Positions 2,530-60,436 of a stretch of 64,000 nt of DNA are shown piece by piece. The DNA comes from Sminthopsis crassicaudata. Its lineage: Eukaryota. A program made the position numbers and the translations under genes. Every line of letters starts with the position of its first letter. The stretch's first letter is position 1. The stretch lies in the NCBI RefSeq assembly GCF_048593235.1, contig NC_133617.1:62395767-62459766 (forward strand). The letters are read 5' to 3'. The notes below the pieces were generated by a model. The model saw nothing but the letters and a program-made list of their open reading frames with translations. It was not told the origin of the DNA and searched no databases.

Positions 2530-3414
2530 CCTCTTTTTTCCCCCCAGGTCTTTCTGTTTAGCTTTCTTGGCCTCCCTGTCTCAATCTTTCTATATTGGTT
2601 ATAGTTTCTTTCCTGTCCCTTTTTCTTTTTTCTTATATATCTCTGGATCTATTTTTTTTTATTTTCTTGATTTTGCCATTCAATACCATCTTCCATCCCC
2701 AACTTCCAGATGGCACAATAGGGTCCAGGGGATATTAAAGAACTGATTGCTGACCTAAATCAGAAAACCTGTAGGAAATCTTCCCAACCTGGACCCCACT
2801 TGCCTAGAGTAATAGACAGAGTCTATCGCCTACCTTAAAGATAATATTCACCCTAGAGTTTTTGCTATTCTTTTTGAGATGATGAATCCAGCTTTAAAAA
2901 TGAATGAATGTGTTTCCTTTCCTCACTTCTTTGAAAAGATGGGGGTGAGGGGAAGAGGTCCAAAGGTCTAGACTACAACATATGTTTTCAGATTTTAAAA
3001 ATGTATTAACAGGTTTGACTAATTTTTTCTCAACAATGATTATTTGTTAAGGGGAATGGATTTCTAGGAGGAGGAAGAGAGATACAAGAGAAATTTTAGG
3101 CAATGCAATAATTAAAGATAAACATAATTTTTTTTTAAAGAATGACTGTCCTCTACACAGTCCCTCTTCAAATAAATAATATGGTCTTCTTAGGAGAGGT
3201 GAGCTCCAAGGAAAGTCATGGCACTCTATTTACAGCCAGAAGATCATTTTTCTATCCCCTCTCAACTATGTCTCTAACTCTTGAAGATTTTCCACATCCA
3301 AGTTCCTAGTTTTTAGAAGCAAGTGCTTTGAGAACTTTGAGTACCAGTTTCAGTCTCAACTCCAGCCTTAGCTGACTGTAGAATTCATTTGGTCTTCATT
3401 AGAGCTTTATAGAG

Positions 3415-3918
3415 TGTTAGGATTACTGGGTGAGAACTCAGGTTTTCTGGACGGTTACAAGGTGAGAACTCAGGTTGACTTGATAGAGGGGGCAAAGCTC
3501 ATTGGCTGGGGTGGTTCTTCCCAGAAGCCCTTGCATTATTCCACGCCCATTCTCTGGGAGAATAAAAAGAGACAGCACTGGGCGCAGAGGGCAGATCGGC
3601 CTGGAGAAGGATAAGAGCTGGAGGAGATTCAGAGCCAGGATTCAAGAGAAAGACTCTCTGAATTGCATCAGGCTTGACGGGGCTCTCTGCAGGAAGGGAA
3701 GTCACTTCTTTGGACAAGAGTTAACAGCAACTGCCTGGAGACAACGGTTCGCTACAGGAAGAAGAATCTGTCTGAGAGATTTGAGTAGACACAGCAGATC
3801 TCTTCCCAGAGAGCGATCCAGCAGCTTTTGGAGACGACAGCTCGTTACAATTGGCGTCCACACGTGGGGCAAGGACTTTTGCTTATCCTGACAAGAGGAG
3901 CTAGACCAGACCTTCGCA
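3415..3918 (+). mobile_element. ERV (class II/beta-like) LTR 3415-3849 + tRNA-Lys1,2-like PBS 3852-3870 + 48 nt leader
   Basis: TG start; TTACA then TGGCGTCCACACGTGGGGC; flanked by ATAGAG at 3409-3414 and 3919-3924; ATTGG at 3501 and AATAAAA at 3561. Confidence 0.8.
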
Positions 3919-4214
3919 ATAGAGGATAGGGCAAAAAAAAAAAAGACACTGAGCTAGTGGGGAATGGGATAAATAAGGACTGTGGAAGTATATTGGGAAC
4001 CTTAGAGATATCAATTTTGCTTCAGACTTAGAAATGCCTAATCCCAGAGAGGGTTTAGACAAGACAGTAAAATGAAAAAATAAGGGTGAGCATCAAGAGG
4101 GTTGGATTCTTGTTCATTCTCTCCCACTAACTCCCATGTGACTTCGGGTCAGTGCTTCATTGTACTCCTGGATCTCAATTTCTTCATCTTTAAAATGAAG
4201 TGGTTGGATTAAGA

Positions 4215-9975: not shown

Positions 9976-11499
9976 TGCTTTTCATTTTTACATGGGAATA
10001 TAAAGACTCAGATGGGAAACTGAGGCTCAGTGAATTCATGTGACTGGACCAAGGTCAGGAAAGCAATAAAGCCAGAATCCAAACCCAGTTTCTTTGATGC
10101 CAAGTCCAGGGATCTGTCCATTCCAACACAAGAAGCATTACCACACATCCTAACATAGTCACACCCCAGCAGACACATACCCTCTCACACACAAAGACAT
10201 GGCTGCAGTGTCGTGTACACACACAGTCACAACCACATATATTCTTACTAAAACACCCCTCAACACACGTCCGTACAATCATTCCAGCACTTCCAGCAAC
10301 GAAGAGATTAGGAGGGCTGGGGTGGGGAGGGGTTCGGGAAGGAGGGAGGGCGGTATGTCTTTAGAGAAGGGATGACTGCTGAAATCTGTGACCTCTTCTC
10401 TTACACCTAGTTTCTTCCGTACTCTAGTACTAATTGTCTTTCTCCAGTACCCCACCCCCACTCCATCCTCTCCCTCACCCAAAAGCAGTGGTTTAAGAAG
10501 CCGAAGCAGCAGCTGCTCAGCTTAAGAAATCCACCCCTCCAATCAAAGCCACCAGCAGGAGGCAGGCATATCGCTAGGGAAGCCCCATAAGCGAACAAAG
10601 CCCAGGCTCGGTCCACTCGAGGACTTCTGGCCAGGGGTACTCCGTGGAGGAGCTGGCTGGTCCAAGCAGCCGGGAGAGAAGGAGAAAGAAGGGTGATGGC
10701 TGAAAGTGTCCAGATGGGGATGCCTGAGCCCTCCGCTGGTCCTTTCAGACACTTCCTTCCCTCTCCCGTTCTAATTGGTATTTTAGGGCTGTCCCCTTGA
10801 CCCAACATCAACCCCAGCCTTCCACGCTCTTGATCTACCAGGACATAGGGTGAGAAATGGAGGGGGCAGAGGGGTTAGCGGGCGGAGGGATACGTTATAT
10901 GTTGTCCGGTGAGTCTCTCACTCCTATTTCCTCTGAGTCAGTCTGGACTGTTCTCCTTTTGGAAAACCTGTCCTTCCAGCTCCCAATGCCGCTGCTGGAA
11001 GGGCACCCAGCTAGATGTGGCCTGAAAAGAAGGAGCTTCTATGGCACTTCCCATTAGCTCCCTTCACACTCTCCATCTCCATCCCCAAGCAGATTTCTTT
11101 CCAGCTCCCTTTTCCAGAGGTGTTTTCTTCAGGCCCTAGACCACCCAGACAATATAGACCACCACAAAGTTCTCCTTTGCCTTGGCCTGGGCAAGAGATG
11201 GAACTCCTGCCCCTTACACAGGGAGGCTATATAGAGTGAAGAATCCATTGTATCAAGATAGCATGGGTCAATTCCGCCACCTCTGACCGGTTCTTCCACT
11301 CACTTGATCCCTTAATCCCAATCTCACCCCGGGGTCTCCTGAGTAGTCCTAACCCAGATCACCTAGGATCCTGGGTGAACCGGCTGTTGCCTTCATTTGG
11401 GTTGCCTCCCTCCCGTCCTTCTTCCCAGCTCATAGTATTTGCTTCTCTCCCCTCCTCTCTCTGGGCAACCAGCCGTGTTCCCCATCCCCTGAATCGCTG

Positions 11500-12960
11500 A
11501 CCCCAACCCCCGCCCTCCGTTCTTGTTCTAACAATTCCGTTCCCAAACTCTTCTTCCTCTCCACCTTCCTATCCCTGTTAACTGGTGGGCTCCTCCATTT
11601 TCATACCTCCCCCCCCCGCGACCCTCGAGCACACTGCCGGGGTGGGTGGGAAATGAAGACATGGCTTAAGCTCCCCTGCTCAAGAAGCACCTTAGAGGAG
11701 CTGGCGGGATGGGGATGGAGAGTGCCGCTCACGGGTCCCAGGAGCCAGCTGCCTCTAGGGACGGTCGGTTGTCAACTCCCCTTTCTCAGGGTCCCAGGAA
11801 AAGAAATCAGGGGCTACAGCTGGCCCAGTTCTAGAATCCCCACCTCTAACCGGGCCGGGCAGAGCTCGCAGAATTCAGCCGGCTGCCAGGACGGGGCGGG
11901 CATCGGAGCCTGCGTTGTCCGCTAAACCAGAGGACTCCGGACGGAGCTCCTTCCCCCGTCCCACCCCAGTCTGCCGCCCACTCCCCGTCTCAGGCCCAGA
12001 TCCGGGAAGCGCACCCACCTGCGTATGGGCTCGTCCTGCGGCGCCGTCCGTGGGTCCGGCCGCCCGCGGGCCAAGGGGGCGGCGGCGCCCGCTCCTAGCG
12101 CCGGTGCATCCCCGCAGCGCCTACGAGGCGGAGCGGTGCCGGGGCGGGTAGGCGGCTCCGCATCGGGGGAAGGGAACAGGGGAGAAAAGCGAGTCAAGGG
12201 GAGCCCTGCACAAAGCGGCCGAGCCTCAGGTTCCGGCTGCAGGCTAGCCGGGGCGCCCGCGGCCGCTGCACCGCTGCCTGCTTGTCCGCCCGCCGGGGGC
12301 CCAGCTAGCTCTCAGCTAGCTCTGCACTCCCCGCTCCCAGCAGGTGGCCGCGGCGCTGGGGGCCTCGCGTCCCAGGGTCTGTCGCCGCGGTTTCCTCGCC
12401 TTCTCCCTTTTTTATAAAGAGGATTCGGGTTTGGAGTGCGCATGCGTTGCCAGCTTTGCACGCGCGCCCCCCCCTTTCATGCCCCCCTCCCCATTCTAAA
12501 CTCCCTCTCTTTCAGTCTTCGTTCCCCCCACCTCTCCCTCCTTGCGATCCAGAGACTTCTTTTGGAGATGCCCTGGGAGTGATGGAGAGACTCCCCCCAC
12601 CCCTCACCCGACTGTTCTTCAGGAAGGACCGAATATGCGTCTCCGACCTTATCCCTCAATTCAACCCACCTCCCCTTGGTCTGATGTTGGGGGTCGCGGT
12701 GGGGCTGGAACCCAAACCTCAGGCTTCTCTAGCCCAATTACTGGGTTTTGGAAGGAGGTAAAAGGACAAAGGAGGGGCTGAGTGGTTGGGTAGGTGTGTC
12801 TACCTTAAGGCCAATCTTGAGAAAGCTCTGAGACTGAGCTTGAGAAGCCAGGGTCCCATTTACTTTTAGCGACCCCAGGCCCCCACCAAAGGAGCCTCAT
12901 TCTTACCCCTTCTGTACGGCTCTACACTGGCGGTATTGTGCCTGCCTGTCTGGAGAAGTC
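11500..12960 (-). promoter_or_regulatory. NCAN: NCAN CpG-island promoter: TATAAAA at 12416-12410, NRF1-like TGCGCATGCG 12437-12446, CTCF-like CCAGCAGGTGGC 12337-12348
   Basis: CpG-dense region; motifs read directly. Confidence 0.75.
12019..12385 (-). other. NCAN: NCAN non-coding exon 1 (5' end approximate)
   Basis: GC-rich segment about 25-30 nt downstream of a TATA box; donor CGCAG|GTGGGT at 12019/12018; intron 1 would be 1609-12018. Confidence 0.65.
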
Positions 12961-14394
12961 TGATTATGTACTAGCGCCAGAGCACGTGTGTTAGCAGCCT
13001 GTATTTGTCGGAAAGTGTGGTGTGGGTATGTTGTCGGGGGAGATTAAGGGGAGTGTTTGTGTGTTTCTGGATTTTTTTTTTTTTTTTTTTTGCACAGTCC
13101 CATTTACCAGCCATGTCTCTGACCTTGATATGTTACTTGACTCCTCCGGCCTCAGTTTGCTCATTTGTAAAAACCAGAGGGGAAAATTAAATGATTTCTA
13201 ATTGTGATATTTTAAGTTTTTTAGTGGCCTCTTCATGACTCTCTGAAAAAGTGTAAATCCTGATGTGTGTCTTTGTCCATCTGAATCAAGAAGGAAGCTT
13301 GTGGTCCTTTCTGTATCTGAGGAAGGCTATTTGATTATGCGGGAATGTGAGAGGTTGATGCCTCTTCTCATCCTCTACCAGAAAGATGATTGAGATTTCA
13401 ATCGGTAAGAAACAGATGACAGACTTCTGTCTGGTACCAACTTCCAGCACTCCCTATTGTTCCCTTCAGCCATAACTCTGGTTTTTCAAAGATTAAGTCA
13501 CAGTCCATTTCCCTATTTCTTTTCCATCACTATCTTCTCCCAGTTTCCCCCACCCCCAGCACAGTCTGAGATGGGAGAACTGAAGGAGTAAGAATGAGAA
13601 AAGGTGGACACTAACCTAGGAGACAGGGAGGGTGAAACTCCCAAATCTGGCCTATAAATAGCTCATTGAGCAAGACCGGGTTTTCAGCATCCCTCCTCCT
13701 CTTTGTATGGCTAGACACATTCTTGTCCCTGGGCAACAAGCTGGCCCCCAATGGAACCCACTGAAGCGCTCCCTCTTTCCCTGAGGAGGGGGTTGCTCAC
13801 CCATTCCTTCTGACACAGAACTCTCTTCTGGGCTGCCTGGGGCTCCATCCTTTCTTTGGAAGGGGGTGTCCCCTGACAAAAACTGTGCTAGCCTGCCCCT
13901 CCTCCAGTTCTGCCAAACTGTTAGCCTTGGCCCCAAGCCCAATTCCCAGGCAAAGGCTTGGCGATGGATGGAAAGCAAAATCCCAGGGGTTCTTAAATGA
14001 GGAATATGGGCATCATGGCTGGCTCTGCATGGGACATTGTCAGCAGGTGTCTTGGGGATCAAGTGTCTTCAGCTCTAACATAAGCTCTCCTCTAACAGGG
14101 AGAGATTGTGGATCCCACAGAGAAACAAAATTTGCCTCCCTGTCCCAAACAGAGGGCCAATATGTTAGGAACATTCAGGTCAATTATCCTTTTGTTCACT
14201 CCTTCCCATCCCCCATTCTTAAATGGCTCCTTCTTTCCTCTCTCTCTATTGCCCTACTTCTCCCTTCTTACAAATTCCCAAACACCTTAGGGACAAATTT
14301 CACCCTTGAACTATATCTCTAATGTTACAAAATGAAAACATCCGTTATTGCACCTCTGTCCTGTAAGAGACTCTAAACTGAAGAACCAAAATTC

Positions 14395-46669: not shown

Positions 46670-49005
46670 TTCTATTTTTTCTTTTTTTTTTTTAATTCTT
46701 TTTATTATCAATTCTACATTTTCTCCCTCTCTTCACCCTTTCCTCTACACATTGAGAAGGCAAGAAATATGACACCCATTATACATATGCAGTCATTTAA
46801 AAATCTCCATATTAGCCATAAATTGAAAGGGAAAAAAAAGCAAGAAAAATTAAGGGAAGATGCCTCAAGATTGAAACATATTATTTTCACTTTTTTCCTT
46901 TCTCATGGTTTTTCCCTTTTGATTTGATTCTTTGTTCACAACATTACTAATGTTTAATATGATTGTGCATGTATGACCTATATCAGATTGTTTGTCATTT
47001 TGAGGCAGGAGGGAGAAAAAAAATTTGGAACTCAAATTCTTACAAAAATGAATGTTGAAAACTATCTTAGCATGTCATTGGAAAAAATAAAATAAAAAAA
47101 AAAATGTTTCCGGCCGCAACATGTGGTAGATAACATTTTAAATCAGGAGTTGTGGTGGCTCATTTTAATGATGAGTTGCAAATTCTTTCACAATTGATCT
47201 TTACCCTTGCTGAGATAGTTTTGTTGGTTCTACTCAATTGTGCATCATTTCATGTAGGTCTTCCCCATTTTTTCTGAAACCATTCACTTCATTTCTTACA
47301 ACACAATAGTATTCCATCACATTCATGTATCATGTCTTGTTTAGTGATTCCTCAAATCTGAGGGGATTCTCATTGAATTATTTTACCTCTCTTTCTTGAT
47401 CATGAACTCTTTCTCTATCCAAAAATTTGACAGTTTCTTCCGTGCTCTCCTAATTTGCTCATGACGTCATCCCTCATGTTTATGCCTAGTTTTGCTGGGC
47501 TGTTTTCCCAGGAATTTTGGTCAAATAGCGAGTCGTTATTTTCTCAGTAACCTGTGACGAGAGGTGCTGGGCTGGGAGCAGGACTGGGAGTAGGGGAGGC
47601 TTGAGGAGGTTCAGAAGGGCTGCTATGGGGCTGGCTAGAAAGTCAGTTATGGAGGTACAAGGCTCATGTCTATTTCCATTGGTCTGCTTCTTTCAGGTCT
47701 CTTTTAAGCTGCGCCCCGGTTCTTTCTAAGAACGTGTGGCCGGACTAGGCGGTGCCACGGAGGGACTCAGAGACACCTAAATCCGAGTCCAGCCTCGGGC
47801 TCACCAGCTCTGGGAGCACTCTCGTCACCCCGCAGCCTCAGTGTTCTCATACGTAAAACGGGGAGAATACGGGCACGGACCTCGGAACTGTTTCCCTGTC
47901 ATTTTGGCTAAGCTGAGTGGTGTGAAGAGGGGCCTTTCTCTTGGGCGGGCCGGGATAGGGGTCAGCGCGCATTGATTCAGCCCCTTCTGGTCAGGTTCCG
48001 CGCGAGGGCCCTGCCCGCCAGGGCCCGTTCTACCCGAGAAGCAGCTGGGAAACAGTGCGTCAGGGCGAGATGCGGTAGGACGAGCTGGGCGGTCTCGGGG
48101 GACGCGCTGAGACTAAGGAGGCCTGGGAAAGACTTCACTTTCTCGGTAGAAGGTGCGGTTTTAGCTGAGACGAGGGATGCAGGAAAAAGAGAAGGGCAGG
48201 GACGCCAGGGCTCGAGGGGAGGGGGTGTGCGGGAGCACCCCACAGGGAAGAGGAGGGGCGGGGCAGGCTGGGAAGGCGCTTGGCTCGGGGAGCCACTGGG
48301 GCGGGGGTGGAGAGTGCTCCTGCCCAATCCTGGGCTCTCAGTAGTGTCCCCGGAGGTGTTAGGCAAAGGGCCCAGAAGCGAGGTCAGGGAGGAGCGTTCC
48401 CGACCGCGGCTCGGGCAGGCCGGGCCTTTTAAAGTCTGAGGAGGGGCAGGCCCGCTCTGCTCCGCCCAGGCCCCAGGATGCACCGGGAAGCACTTCCCGC
48501 CCCGCCGCTCCGGTCCCCGCCCCGCCCCGCGCCTGCGCCCTGCGCGCCGTTGGCCTCCGCGTCGGCCTGGACTAGATCTCCACGTGCAGCATCCGAGAGG
48601 GAGGGGGCGCCGGCGCTCCCCACGTGATCGCGCCCGGCGCTCCCGCCTCAGTCCTTTTAAAATTGTGGACTCTCTTCCGGCCCCCTGGGCCCGGGCGCGC
48701 CGAGAGAAGCGGGAGGTCCCCGGAGCGGGGAAGCGCGGGGGGTGACGAGAGCCACGGAGGAGGAGGCGGGGTCTCTGGGCTGGCCATTCGCCGTGTCTGG
48801 GCTCAGCTTCCCCGTCTGTCCGAGGCTGGCGGTTGGAGCCGTCTCCCTCCGAGGGCCCGGGTGGGAAGGGGACATTTACTAAGCACCTTGCAGACACGCT
48901 CTCCTTGGATCGCGACTCCCCCACTGCCCCATTTTACAGATGAGGAAGCTGAGGCCGACCGCGTGACTTGGCCCACGTGGCCTGACTCTGCCCCGCCGGC
49001 GGGCC

Positions 49006-49049
49006 ATGGCCGCCTCGGTGCCTTTGGTCTGCAGCCAGACCGTGAGCAG
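49006..49049 (+). CDS. NR2C2AP: NR2C2AP (TRA16) coding exon 1, MAASVPLVCSQTVS-R
   Basis: GCCATGG Kozak context; donor AG|GTGAGG; similar to human MTHSLVCPETVSR. Confidence 0.9.
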
Positions 49050-49138
49050 GTGAGGGCGGGTCCCGGGCCGGGATCGCGGGGCCGCGGCTGCCCCCCCACC
49101 CCGCGCCGCTGCCACCCCCCCCCTCGGTGTCTCCGCAG

Positions 49139-49229
49139 GGTGAGCTCCGTGCTGCAGCGGGACTCGAAGCAGTTTGGAAAGAAGCATCTGTTTGACGGGC
49201 AGGATGAGACGTGTTGGAATTCTGACCAG
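49139..49229 (+). CDS. NR2C2AP: NR2C2AP coding exon 2, VSSVLQRDSKQFGKKHLFDGQDETCWNSDQ
   Basis: CAG acceptor, GTGACG donor, 91 nt; matches human VSSVLNRNTRQFGKKHLFDQDEETCWNSDQ. Confidence 0.95.
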
Positions 49230-49544
49230 GTGACGGGGGAGGGGGGGCGGCCCCGCGGTGGGACCGGAAGAGCCCCGGGAGAGCCCACTGCAGGTTTCAG
49301 GGGCCAGCCCGCCTCCCTCCCTCCCCGTGGGAGGCTGAGGCCGCCTCTGCGTGCCGCGTACACCGGCCCCGGGGCACTCCCACAGGGCCTTGCAGGTCCA
49401 CCGAGGGGCGCTGCGCACCTCTCAGGAACCCGGGGGGCGGCTGGCTTTCACTGCAGCCGGAGGCCAGTCCGAGCCCCTGCCCGCCGGGTGGGCGCTGGCA
49501 TTTTCCGGGGACTGACCCCGTTTTCTTTGGCTGTCTGACCTCAG

Positions 49545-49650
49545 GGCACCTCCCAGTGGGTGATGCTGGAATTCCCCCAGTCCGTCCGCGTGTCTCAGGT
49601 GCAGATCCAGTTCCAGGGGGGGTTTGCGAGCCGCCAAGGCCGCTTGGAAG
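49545..49650 (+). CDS. NR2C2AP: NR2C2AP coding exon 3, GTSQWVMLEFPQSVRVSQVQIQFQGGFASRQGRLE-G
   Basis: CAG acceptor, GTGAGG donor, 106 nt; IQFQGGF motif. Confidence 0.95.
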
Positions 49651-49760
49651 GTGAGGAGGGGTCAAGGGGAGGAGGGGGTGGTCTGGCCCGGCCCCTCCTG
49701 TAGGGCTCCAGCGCAGACTCTGTGCTGCTGAGCCCTTCTCTTTCCCTTCTTTAAAAACAG

Positions 49761-49828
49761 GTGGCAGGAAGAGCGAGTCCCTGGAGAAGATTGGGGATTT
49801 CTACCCCCAGGACAACAACTCCCTGCAG
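49761..49828 (+). CDS. NR2C2AP: NR2C2AP coding exon 4, GRKSESLEKIGDFYPQDNNSLQ
   Basis: AACAG acceptor, 68 nt; DFYPxDNNSLQ motif; followed by U12 donor ATATCCTCT. Confidence 0.93.
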
Positions 49829-50029
49829 ATATCCTCTCCGCTGGGGGGAGGGGGCTGGCCCAGCTCGGGTTAGGCAGCACTGGGCCGGGCTGGAGGCCTC
49901 CGTGGGAGCTGGGAGAAAAGGCGGGGGTCAGTGGGAGCTGAGGAAGCCCCTGGCAGGGACCGGGTCCTGACTGGGCTCCGAGTGGGGCCCCCAGCTCAGT
50001 CCTGTTAACCTTGACAGCGCGTGAGTTAC
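49829..50029 (+). other. NR2C2AP: U12-type AT-AC intron (201 nt), last intron of NR2C2AP
   Basis: 5' end ATATCCTCT, branch CCTTGAC at 50009-50015, terminal AC; this is the splice that keeps the homologous frame. Confidence 0.92.
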
Positions 50030-56517: not shown

Positions 56518-57133
56518 CTAGGCTTTTAGCAGCTTTACAGGGTGCAAGTGGGCATAGCATCAACAGGGCAGGGAGGCTGGGGGGGGGGGGGGACAGCGCA
56601 CAGGTGTGTGTGTTTGTGTGTGAATCCTGTTCTGAAGGGGGTCTTCATGGTGCTCCAGATGACTATCGGACTCGGAGCTTTGGCCCTGACTGTGAGGACG
56701 GCGGCATGACCAAGGCAATAGATGGAATGAAGATGTGACCTGGGGGCCAAGGTGAGGTGCAAACAACAAGTGGCTGGAAACTGGAATTCCTAGATTCTAG
56801 ACCTAGATATTCAATCAATTCTACAGGGCCTCTCTGTACATTTGCTTCTGGATTTGGAAGCCGAGGGGACAGAGGGACTCCTTGGAGAGGTTTGTGTTCA
56901 CAGGGCCTGCTGCCTCTGGCCCTCCGGGCTCTCATACATCGGGGCAGAAGAGATGCCCTTCAAACAAAGCCAAGCTCCTTGGGCCGGCCTGAGCCCCTCA
57001 CTCTCTCTTCTGCAGAGCCTGTTCCCACCCAGTCCAGTCTCTGATAAAGTAGGCCAGGCTCAGGACTCTTAGAACCACAGTCCCTGGGGTCTGGGGAGGA
57101 GCAGCCAGGGAGAGGATAGCGGGAGCCACGTAC

Positions 57134-57199
57134 CTTTAAGAAGGTATTCTTTTAGCTGAGTCAGTTCTCCCTGAGCAGCAAGCTGGTGGATGGACAGAG
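57134..57199 (-). CDS. RFXANK: RFXANK exon, SLSIHQLAAQGELTQLKEYLLK (ankyrin 1)
   Basis: AACAG acceptor, GTACGT donor, 66 nt. Confidence 0.95.
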
Positions 57200-57502
57200 C
57201 TGTTGTTTAGGAAGGGGAGGCAGAAAGAGGCATGGGTTATAAGGGAGGGGAAGGAAACGTCTTTATGGGGGAGGGGCAGGACAACTTTGGAAATTTCAAA
57301 GATAATAAAGACGGATAAAGTCCCGGAACCAGAGAGTCAAGATAACGTGACACCCCCTCCCTGGCAGGGTCGGGCTCCTTCCTCATCTCTGGAGGTCAGA
57401 GTTTGGCACAGGGGCTCAGGTTTTCCCAGTGTGACATTCTCCAGCTCCGGTGGCTGAGAATTCTAGGGCCGGAGCCCAACCTTGGCCCCGAGGCATACTC
57501 AC

Positions 57503-57589
57503 AGTCCAGGGTGGCAGGCTGGGCGGAGATCTCGTTGCCCCTCTGCCGGTTGGTCAGGGTGGTGGAGTGCTTCAGGGAGCTGCTGCCGG
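57503..57589 (-). CDS. RFXANK: RFXANK exon, [29 protein letters not shown]
   Basis: CAG acceptor, GTGAGT donor, 87 nt; [16 protein letters not shown] motif. Confidence 0.95.
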
Positions 57590-58044
57590 CTGGGATAGAA
57601 GAGGAGCGGTCAGGAGGGCACTGAGCCTTCTCTGCCCCAGAAGAAAACTTCATGTCTAAACCCGGAGGTGAAGAGCACCGCCCACAGCCTGCCCGGGGTC
57701 AGCTCTAAGCACTTAGGGGCCAGGCGGGACACAAGAAGGGCAAAAACGCTCCCAGCCTCAGGGAGGAGGCAGGAAAGGGAGAGAGGGACTGTCACTAGAT
57801 GCGCGCCACCACTGCGCTAAGTTCTGTACAAACACCGTCTCTGGGAGAGCGGGATGGACCACAGGGTAATCCAGGAGGAGAGCAGCAGCAGCCGGGCAGG
57901 CGGGGTGAGCTCCAGTGCCCCTCAGTTTCCCCATCCATAAAATGGGGACCAGTAGCATGCAGCACGTTGGTGGCCCGTGCTTGTGAAGGGGCCAGTTTTG
58001 GTCGGGGTCCTCCTCTCCCGGCCTGATCTCCCCAGAGGACTTAC

Positions 58045-58240
58045 TGTGGGGCGCGGCGAGGACTCCGTCCAGCTCGGGACTCCCGGAGTCTGGGATGCAG
58101 GGGTACAGGCGCAGCAGCACGGTGTCAGAGCCATCCGAGCTGTCCTGGGTGGGGTCTTCAGGCTGAGGGAGGGCGGGGGGCTCCTGGAGCTGGCCAGGGC
58201 CCCCGGAACCTAGGCTGGCCACGGCCCCTTCTGGCTCCAT
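58045..58240 (-). CDS. RFXANK: RFXANK first coding exon (MEPEGAVASL...DGSDTVLLRLYPCIP...AAPH), exon 58045-58251 incl. 11 nt UTR
   Basis: AG acceptor 58253-58252, GCCATGG context, GTAAGT donor; DGSDTVxLxLxPC matches the human N-terminus. Confidence 0.9.
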
Positions 58241-59555
58241 GGCGGGCACTTCTGGGGGGTCCAGATGAAAGCAGGCAATTAGGGGGCGCTTCCCCCTGGG
58301 TGCCCCTCCCCCTCCTCACCATTCCTCCTCATACGGGAGGATGCTCCCCATTCCCAGGCCTGTTTCTGGAAGAAACTTTAGTCCTCTCTAGTCCTGGCTC
58401 GATGAGAGACCTTGATCAAGTCCCTTCCCCTCTCTAACCTCAGTTTCCCCTCTCTGCCAAATGACGCCCCACGCAGAGGAAATACAGGGCCAAGCAAACC
58501 CTTCGCGCCCGACGGATGCAGTTCCGCGGGCCTGCGTTTGTTCAGGGACCGGGGGAGAGCCCACCTTCTCGGACCCCAGCCCCTGCGCCCTGGGGGGACC
58601 GGGTGCGCGGGGCTCTGCCCACGAGGCAGCCGGGGCTGAGCAGCCTCTCCCCGCGTCTCCTGCCTGGGAGCCGGGATCCTCCTCCTCCCGACCCTACCCG
58701 GGACTTCCCGAGCCCGAACCGAAAGTTAACTTTACCAAACTGCAGCGCTCCGCCCCCTCGCCCCCTTCCCCAACCCGGCGGGGGGCCTCCCACAATGCAC
58801 CTGAGAGCAGCGGGGGCGGGGGGCGCCCCTCCCCCGCCGGGAGCAGCTGCGCAGAGCGCAGGGAAGGGACAGGGGCGCTGGCCCTTTAAGAACTCAGCTT
58901 CGGGCCCGGGAGACTAACCCGAGAGAGAGGAGGAGGGCCGGGCGGAGCTCGGACGCAAGGAGGCCAGGTCGGAGGGCTTCTAGTGCGCCTGCGCACCACT
59001 CGAGCCCCCTCCCGTAGGAACCAATCGACCGGGGGGCTGGGCGGGACCAACTGGGCTGCGGGATTTAAAGGGACGGTGCGGGCCATTTCTCGTCCCCCCT
59101 CCTGAGGCGCGAGTTTTCCCCTTTTTAGGCTATTCCGGGGACCTGGGGGAGGCCGAGGGCGTTGGGGTGGAAACCTGGGAGCCGGCCCCCAAGGTGAGAG
59201 GTGGGCCTGTGGAGCCCCTCTCCTCCCTGCGGACAGGAGTCCCCTCTCCCGTTTGAGCCCCTCGGGGAGTGTCCTTCCCCGCTAAGGCCTGGATCGGAGG
59301 CCCCCACTCCTTCGCCTCGTCCCGGGCCGAAGCCACCGCCGGGGCTGGTCCTCCCGCAGCCCAGGACTGGGACCAAGGGGCGGGGAGGAGGTCGGAGTGC
59401 ATTAGGGAGCCAGACCGGAAGCGGAACTGGAGCGGCGCGGCTACGAGTTTCGGCCGGGACGGTCGAGGAGCTGCACCTCTCCCCGGCCCCCCGAGGCTTC
59501 CCGTCGCCGCCAACCGCCACCAACTGCCACAAACCGCCGGCTCCGCGGAGGCGCC

Positions 59556-59592
59556 ATGGAGGAGGCGGAGATGCAGCTCAAGGGGAAGAAAG
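59556..59592 (+). CDS. BORCS8: BORCS8 (MEF2BNB) exon 1, MEEAEMQLKGKK-V
   Basis: GCCATGG context, 37 nt, GT donor; matches human MEEPEMQLKGKK. Confidence 0.93.
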
Positions 59593-60436
59593 GTGGCGGC
59601 GGGGCGGGGACCGGGGGCCGGGGAGGGAGGTGAAAAGTCGAAACTGGCTGGAGACGCCGCTGTGTGACCCCGGGCAAGTGTCTCCCCCTCTCTGGGTCCG
59701 AGTGCGCCTTTCAAACGGTCCGGGTCCTCACCCCGCAGCCGTGAACTTGGACGGGGAAAATTACCTATTTTCGCTAAACTCTGGCTTTCATATGCACTTT
59801 ATGCCAGGCACTTTAAAATGTGTCCTGGGAAGTCCGTGGATTTCCCCTGGCCGGCCCCCAAAGGGTTCCAATCACGAGCAAGGTGGGGGACCCCCGCACC
59901 CGAGGGAGGCCTTTCTGTTGCCAGCTCCTGGAGGTCGCTGGAGACTTCCGGAGGATCACGTCTTCTCCGCTGTCCCCCAATTCGCTGCCCCGTTTTCTAG
60001 AAGGGACCTTGGGGGTCATCTAGCAATAGCACTCATTTTACAGATAGGGAAACTGAGTCCTGGAGAGAAGAGGAGGATCAGTCGACTTAAGTATAGTTGC
60101 TCCTCTTATCAATCAGCTGCTCAGAGGAGAAGGTTGGGTTAGATAAGAGTTTAAGGTCCCTTTTAGGCACTAAACGTAGGATATTTCCAACCTCAGCTCT
60201 CCCTAAAACCAGGCCGGAAAGTCATATGCCAAGGGATCAGTCGAACAGAATACATTGGATCCCCGTTGTTGTCAGTCTGTGTCTGAGGGGACATTCCGGA
60301 GTCCCCCTACGGAGGGATCTCTGATCGCTCAGCCCCGAGCGGGGATGTACTGGGGAAGTTAGAGCCGGCGGGCAGTTTTCATTACTTTGGGATCCTTTGA
60401 TTGCATCTTAACCACGGCCACTGGCTTTGGGTTCAG

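Follow-up and report, generated by a model that had tools for sequence, protein, structure and literature searches.

The 504-bp unit at 3415-3918 of the window, the whole 64,000-nucleotide stretch of Sminthopsis crassicaudata DNA analysed here, is very probably the long LTR form of a betaretrovirus-like family that uses two tandem primer-binding sites (PBSs). On this account the copy in the window would be a solo LTR, produced by recombination between long LTRs and likely descended from a provirus primed at the second site. The locus is an ordinary minority product of an unusual endogenous retrovirus (ERV) family.

A probable solo LTR that contains a primer-binding site

The unit and its parts, all on the + strand, are as follows; the labels and functions of the three promoter-like motifs are putative.

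3409..3414, +, left 6-bp target-site duplication (TSD) ATAGAG, read from the window letters
3415..3918, +, solo LTR, long form, 504 bp, probable product of PBS2 priming, from family comparison
3415..3849, +, short-form LTR, 435 bp, the commonest LTR of the family, from family comparison
3429..3444 and 3461..3476, +, two 16-nt direct repeats, 32 nt apart, in the U3-like part
3501..3505, +, reverse CCAAT
3541..3548, +, GC-box-like motif
3561..3566, +, AATAAA, TATA-like or poly(A) signal
3850..3851, +, 2-nt spacer from the short U5 end to PBS1
3852..3870, +, PBS1, mismatched allele V, 19-mer, compared with tRNA-Lys-CTT
3871..3918, +, 48-nt spacer from PBS1 to the second att end; in proviruses 3 nt and PBS2 come next
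3919..3924, +, right 6-bp TSD ATAGAG, read from the window letters

The unit opens with TG at 3415, reaches a short U5-like end, GTTACA, at 3844-3849, and closes with CA at 3918, where the 48-nt stretch ends. A sequence-only reading had placed these features, together with the 19-mer, the two ATAGAG copies and the 504-bp length, and all of its coordinates are exact. The chance of a given 6-mer match, which bears on the ATAGAG duplication, is about 2.4e-4. The terminal inverted repeat measures 3 bp for the short LTR form and 2 bp for the long form. The same reading took the 19-mer to lie one substitution and one insertion from a tRNA-Lys PBS, and we confirmed this against the complement of the host tRNA-Lys-CTT 3' end. 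That end is canonical in 14/14 gene-like tRNA-Lys-CTT sites examined.

A TG...CA unit flanked by a TSD, with no internal sequence between the duplications and no trace of PBS2 or a polypurine tract (PPT) found there, has the makeup of a solo LTR, and the same unit forms both LTRs of long/long proviruses elsewhere in the genome. The window copy is one of the long-form solos described below. It likely arose by recombination between the two long LTRs of one provirus, and that parent was likely primed at PBS2. A miniature, TRIM-like LTR element was considered and rejected, as the unit has one LTR and no PPT inside its TSD, and copies of the family carry gag. The number of 16-nt direct repeats in the U3-like part likely contributes to LTR length variation in the family, whose short forms measure 373-471 nt. 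Elsewhere in the window, GC-rich islands (0.52-0.69) lie at 10001-13000, 48001-50000 and 57001-60000, the first of them about 6 kb from the solo LTR.

A young class II family without env

The search covered the S. crassicaudata genome, 3.24 Gb in 8 contigs, and the 504-bp unit gave 4,028 first-look candidates genome-wide. Among the 40 that were scored, 33 match positions 1-504 and 7 match 15-504, at 96-100% identity, and all 40 reach position 504. At 24 of 30 fetched loci, base 504 is followed by 3-4 nt, a second 18-nt PBS (PBS2), the leader and gag. The leader order is accordingly U5 end, PBS1 (Lys-CUU type), 48 nt, PBS2 (which we take to be of Lys-UUU type) and gag, and an exact pattern for the PBS1-spacer-PBS2 junction counts 1,815 in the genome. 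The Lys-CTT label of the host tRNA comes from ARAGORN. Loss of the spacer is rare, with 17 such junctions, three of them inside one tandem array.

Most copies of the family are about 3 kb and contain gag only, and full copies span 6.2-6.5 kb. In a 6-kb copy (L193) the frames of gag-pro (802 aa) and pol (895 aa) run without a break, and no env frame is present. Pfam domains at loci L032 and L193 include gag p10, p24 and a CCHC_5 zinc finger, followed by pro, RT, RNase H and integrase. The best solved-structure matches of pol are 7sr6 (E 9e-154), 7usf and 3jca, far above HIV RT (E 1e-58); we take these entries to be HERV-K RT and MMTV integrase, i.e. betaretroviral. The 6-bp TSD and the tRNA-Lys primer are likewise those of a betaretrovirus-like element. 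The family is a young, env-less class II (betaretrovirus-like) ERV, and because a 601-bp stretch of RT is the same in at least 40 copies, its burst must have been very recent.

Integrants with deletions or rearrangements are many. One provirus (L005/L036) has a large internal inversion, a short right end and an exact TSD, and another (L123) keeps only 34 nt between PBS2 and the PPT. In six proviruses (L039, L118, L121, L126, L127 and L444) the 5' and 3' LTRs differ at polymorphisms of the family while the TSDs are exact or near exact, which suggests intermolecular strand transfer. If true, this would bias dating by LTR-LTR comparison.

Two right-hand LTR ends

Right ends in the family are of two kinds, either 2 nt before PBS1 or 3 nt before PBS2, with 6-bp TSDs at both, and the long end lies 69 nt beyond the short one. 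Long-ended proviruses make up roughly 8% (~3/36 in the set taken in genomic order, once the three junctions set aside from it are counted as long), and the rest are mostly short-ended. A first set of 20 regions, picked by likeness to the window copy, held 5 proviruses with two long LTRs (3 with a callable exact TSD), 11 with a 3' LTR stopping at position 435 beside a matching 6-mer, and 4 that were rearranged, tandem, mismatched or incomplete. A second set of 40 regions, mostly in genomic order and with 3 junctions that had already-listed long partners set aside beforehand, gave 33 short 3' ends (28 with an exact TSD), 6 regions without a 3' LTR and 1 tandem. Twelve candidate long pairs resolved into 8 clean long/long proviruses with exact TSDs, 1 complex locus and 3 that were not pairs. 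When 20 of 40 copies were chosen by RT identity alone, 17 could be resolved; all 17 were short-ended, 15 had an exact TSD, and the two LTRs were identical in 12/16.

Pattern searches found both kinds of end in large numbers. A strict pattern for long ends followed by C or G gave 241, and a different pattern for short ends gave 2,352; these are partial counts of unequal stringency and do not form a ratio. Sixty long-end loci were examined, comprising 28 solos with a 6-bp TSD, 2 solos with a 5-bp TSD, 24 3' LTRs behind a PPT and 6 others. Thirty short ends comprised 13 3' LTRs, 4 solos with a TSD and 13 that stayed unresolved.

The earlier reading had proposed a check on genome copies that would tell a family trait from a single accident, and both of its outcomes turned up in one family, since copies with TSDs end at the short end and at the long end alike. 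The branch in which the long end is a family trait holds, as all 40 scored copies reach position 504 and 28/60 other long-end loci have an exact 6-bp TSD of their own. The other branch, in which a single integration went astray and took a cryptic CA in the leader for its right att site, fails. A terminal inverted repeat of only 2 bp and a PBS within the unit would suit such an accident. However, the same boundary recurs at the same base in 241 long ends, those examined including solos with their own TSDs and 3' LTRs behind a PPT, and it falls 3 nt before a second PBS at which captured tRNA is found. We regard the probability of this explanation as practically nil. The long boundary is instead placed by the second PBS, which starts three bases after 3918 in proviruses.

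These counts also bear on how the window copy itself came about. It could have integrated directly as the one-LTR product of faulty reverse transcription, in a family otherwise as described here, and the many deleted or rearranged integrants, such as L123, lend this some weight. However, the window TSD encloses no trace of PBS2 or a PPT, and long-form solos and two-LTR proviruses are similar in number, as recombination between LTRs is expected to produce. We thus consider direct integration very unlikely and retain recombination between two long LTRs as the source of the window copy.

Primer copies at both binding sites

Reverse transcriptase that reads through its primer copies the tRNA into the provirus at the site that was primed. 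We examined 56 of the 84 sites in the genome that match the tRNA-Lys-CTT T-arm. Twenty-nine of them are CCA-bearing copies 1-4 nt after a short U5 end, in this family or close relatives; the remainder comprise 2 after a long end, 11 after other ends and 14 genes. Copies of the Lys-UUU type, in turn, number 31 in the genome, and 26 of the 30 examined join long ends, 13 with the 48-nt spacer and the rest in longer-spacer relatives. None of the 30 sits at the short end of the 48-nt family; the other 4 include a double capture. In this double capture (L364, 1380-1560), one LTR carries a whole tRNA-Lys-CTT copy at its short end and, after it, a Lys-UUU-type copy at its long end. At another locus (L314, around 1500) the captured stretch starts as the Lys-CUU 18-mer, proceeds like the Lys-UUU-type captures and rejoins the spacer; on one reading this is a template switch between two primers.

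Thus LTRs end 2-3 nt before each PBS with TSDs, and a trace of the primer is found at each. The read-through copies at both ends show that PBS1 and PBS2 are both used. The captures stem from aberrant second-strand transfers, so they reveal which tRNA primed and not how often, and the two cases of tRNA-Lys-CTT captured at PBS2 show that the pairing of primer and site is not strictly one-to-one.

A lineage from which 10 nt of PBS2 are deleted has spread to 49 copies. We fetched 40; all 33 that could be resolved are short-ended, and 26 have an exact TSD. The lack of long ends in this lineage is borderline taken alone (p about 0.065, for 0/35 at a 7.5% background). That the lineage still spread shows that PBS1 is sufficient. 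PBS1 is the main primer site of the family and not a relic, given the tRNA-Lys-CTT captures there and the proviruses, most of which end just before it.

Captured primers also touch on the annotation of this genome. Joined to LTR-like ends or carrying the CCA complement are 42 of the 56 tRNA-Lys-CTT-like sites examined (L306-L355 included), and most such sites in the genome are copies of primers captured by ERVs and not genes. ARAGORN called 15/30 of these tRNA-Lys-CTT-like loci tRNA genes, although only 2/30 were gene-like. Captured primers inflate the tRNA gene counts of this genome. Two clusters (L336 and L337) each hold four tRNA-Lys-CTT genes in inverted pairs, and L337 also holds two tRNA-Ser-TGA.

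Proposed mechanism and origin

In retroviral reverse transcription, the position of the primer sets the right end of the LTR. Priming at PBS1, in about 9/10 of proviruses, would yield LTRs of the 435 type, and the 5' LTR of such a provirus would look longer than its 3' LTR. Priming at PBS2, in about 1/10, would let minus strong-stop DNA take in PBS1 and the spacer, adding 69 nt to each LTR. As transcription of either product would give the same RNA, the two LTR forms would interconvert in each cycle. Recombination between the LTRs of a long/long provirus would then leave the unit seen in the window.

The arrangement may have originated by duplication of a module consisting of a U5 end and a PBS. 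In older relatives (L356, L367 and L370) the 18-nt stretches that precede the two PBSs match at 15-16/18 positions, which points to such a duplication; in the 48-nt family the two att-proximal stretches agree at only 4-7/18 ungapped positions, so the duplication is visible only in the older relatives. If the module was duplicated, the long end would be a true second att site and not a cryptic CA. In older relatives (L154-L185 and others) the spacer measures about 69 nt and the U5 ends differ, but the two-PBS layout and the long ends are the same.

A duplicated module also fits the idea of an LTR boundary permanently shifted beyond an ancestral PBS that is now dead, giving a fixed long LTR or a miniature element. 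This was the second option of the sequence-only reading. The mismatch in the inner PBS of the window copy and the existence of long/long proviruses are in keeping with it as well. However, short 3' ends dominate even among the youngest copies (17/17, with identical LTRs in 12/16), tRNA-Lys-CTT is captured at PBS1, and the proviruses carry gag, some of them gag-pro-pol. The inner PBS is thus no ancestral relic and the unit no miniature element, and we judge a permanently moved boundary extremely improbable. Two tandem sites in use, with the long form as the minority outcome, remain the account that we carry forward.

A mismatched PBS1 allele is common

Exact copies of PBS1 number 1,419 for the mismatched allele V and 1,818 for the perfect allele P, and no intermediates between them occur at the 5' junctions counted. 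Among longer-spacer relatives, 32 matches at 31 sites comprise 20 of allele P, 9 of allele V and 2 with the substitution only. Long ends, with their passively copied PBS1, have V in 108/241, and 5' junctions have it in 45/100 (Fisher p=1.0). The V share is 26/49 in the PBS2-deleted lineage (26:23) and 9/17 among RT-identical copies.

The equal V share in the two classes would be accounted for if all copying started at PBS2 and short ends arose later, through integrase or a nuclease acting at the inner U5 end. Against this, complete tRNA-Lys-CTT copies, CCA included, sit at short ends, the PBS2-deleted lineage reached 49 copies with TSDs, and PBS1 alleles in that lineage are mixed 26:23, as tRNA-templated rewriting predicts. 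A start at PBS2 only is in our view highly unlikely, and we interpret the alleles with priming at both sites in mind.

At one locus (L326) canonical tRNA was copied onto an allele-V template. The tRNA copy may reset V to P in one out of two PBS1-primed events. With such a reset in half of the V-templated events, V at 5' junctions would be expected near 24%, which the observed 45/100 rejects (p=6e-6). To reach the observed share, about 90% of PBS1-primed integrants would have to come from V RNA, an approximately 11-fold advantage per RNA, assuming 50:50 resolution. We see an about even chance that V is reset by the tRNA copy and kept common by this roughly 11-fold better priming at PBS1, likely through escape from 3' tRNA fragments. 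The genome would then hold a record of what a PBS mismatch does to fitness, as PBS1 is only carried along in PBS2-primed integrants but is needed by PBS1-primed ones. One count sits poorly with the rest: allele P is present in 11/12 Lys-UUU captures from the 48-nt family (p=0.008 against 45%), a mismatch with the 108/241 V at long ends.

V might also persist without selection, either because heteroduplex repair favours the RNA-derived strand and switches of template beside PBS1 reassort the alleles, or because a variant host tRNA primes it. The equal share of V in both priming classes agrees with this, as may the weak clustering of the alleles on a tree built from the 72 leader-gag stretches that were left of 112 once 40 with short alignments had been removed, in which 17 changes compare with 19.8 after shuffling and 43/500 shuffles are as low; this set is enriched for V. 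However, the near 50:50 proportions in the PBS2-deleted lineage (26/49) and in RT-identical copies (9/17) are as simple segregation of heteroduplexes formed on V templates would give, and the canonical tRNA copy at L326 sits on a V template. A variant host tRNA priming V was sought and rejected: one pattern gave 0 matches, and 0 tRNAs were found in 36 of 71 and in 5/5 sites, the search for tRNA-Lys-CTT T-arms serving as positive control. None of the other 35 of the 71 matches has the A-G context of the Lys-CTT T-loop, and no variant tRNA gene or capture was found among the 36/71 and 5/5 sites. Persistence without selection is a possibility that we hold to be real, though we would bet against it. 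Better priming by V stays our working explanation.

Comparison with known systems

In openly accessible papers, Repbase/Dfam notes and bioRxiv supplements aside, we came across no naturally occurring mammalian ERV in which two tandem PBSs are both active. Going by their title, Voronin and Pathak (2004) reportedly saw that an HIV-1 vector genome with two PBSs can be primed at either of them. In the part of the literature on HIV-1 culture variants that we draw on, multiple PBSs arise during primer switching (PMC1084362). Such HIV-1 genomes are engineered or transient in culture, whereas the family described here is natural, has at least 1,815 germline copies and has kept the layout across subfamilies. 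Drosophila Gypsy likewise has two primer binding sites in one retroelement, but these lie at opposite ends of the genome and use the same tRNA-Lys2, only the 5' one is indispensable, and the portion of the paper available describes no alternative LTR length (PMC1635307). Two other candidates are not precedents, going by the available portions of the papers: one concerns two vectors (PMC4021621), and the other different PBSs among copies of a copia cluster (PMC3212995).

The family resembles, by description, MEBrv 3, an env-less betaretrovirus-like ERV amplified in Dasyuridae (PMC11334065). In both, pol is of class II, gag-pro-pol comes without env, the two LTRs of a provirus can be identical and copy number is high, and the MEBrv 3 LTR of 469 nt falls within the 373-471 nt range of the short form; MEBrv 3 is about 7.3 kb as against 6.2-6.5 kb here, a comparison by description only. 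The words PBS, primer and tRNA have 0 occurrences in the text or in one text supplement of that paper, and neither a pair of primer sites nor a pair of LTR lengths is described there (PMC11334065).

Mouse ETn/MusD elements, as far as the available portion of their description goes, offer a second likeness (PMC7472051). They too are betaretrovirus-like, with autonomous and non-autonomous partners, Lys3 and Lys1,2 primers both occur, and a common mismatched PBS, which the tRNA copy reverts 50:50, is dispersed across the tree. There, the fragment tRF3a blocks priming in a mismatch-sensitive manner, and escape from 3' tRNA fragments has been proposed (PMC7472051). ETn copies differ in having one PBS each and switching primers, whereas in the window family both sites are in one RNA and LTR length changes with the site used.

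Meaning of the finding

Two working rules of ERV annotation, a single LTR boundary per provirus family and a PBS placed outside the LTR, are broken by this family. One RNA gives two LTR lengths, so that the LTRs of most proviruses seem unequal and a single element is covered by two LTR models. The long form also places a PBS into solo LTRs, which normally lose it. The PBS is a target of tRNA fragments and of KRAB zinc-finger repressors. It may be, although we put this at somewhat under an even chance, that two tandem PBSs for different lysine tRNAs have been kept over subfamilies as a hedge against silencing by tRNA fragments, and that the roughly 11-fold gain of V is a germline measure of restriction by 3' tRNA fragments. 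The family also has a built-in control for asking if selection favours PBS mismatches because they evade tRNA fragments.
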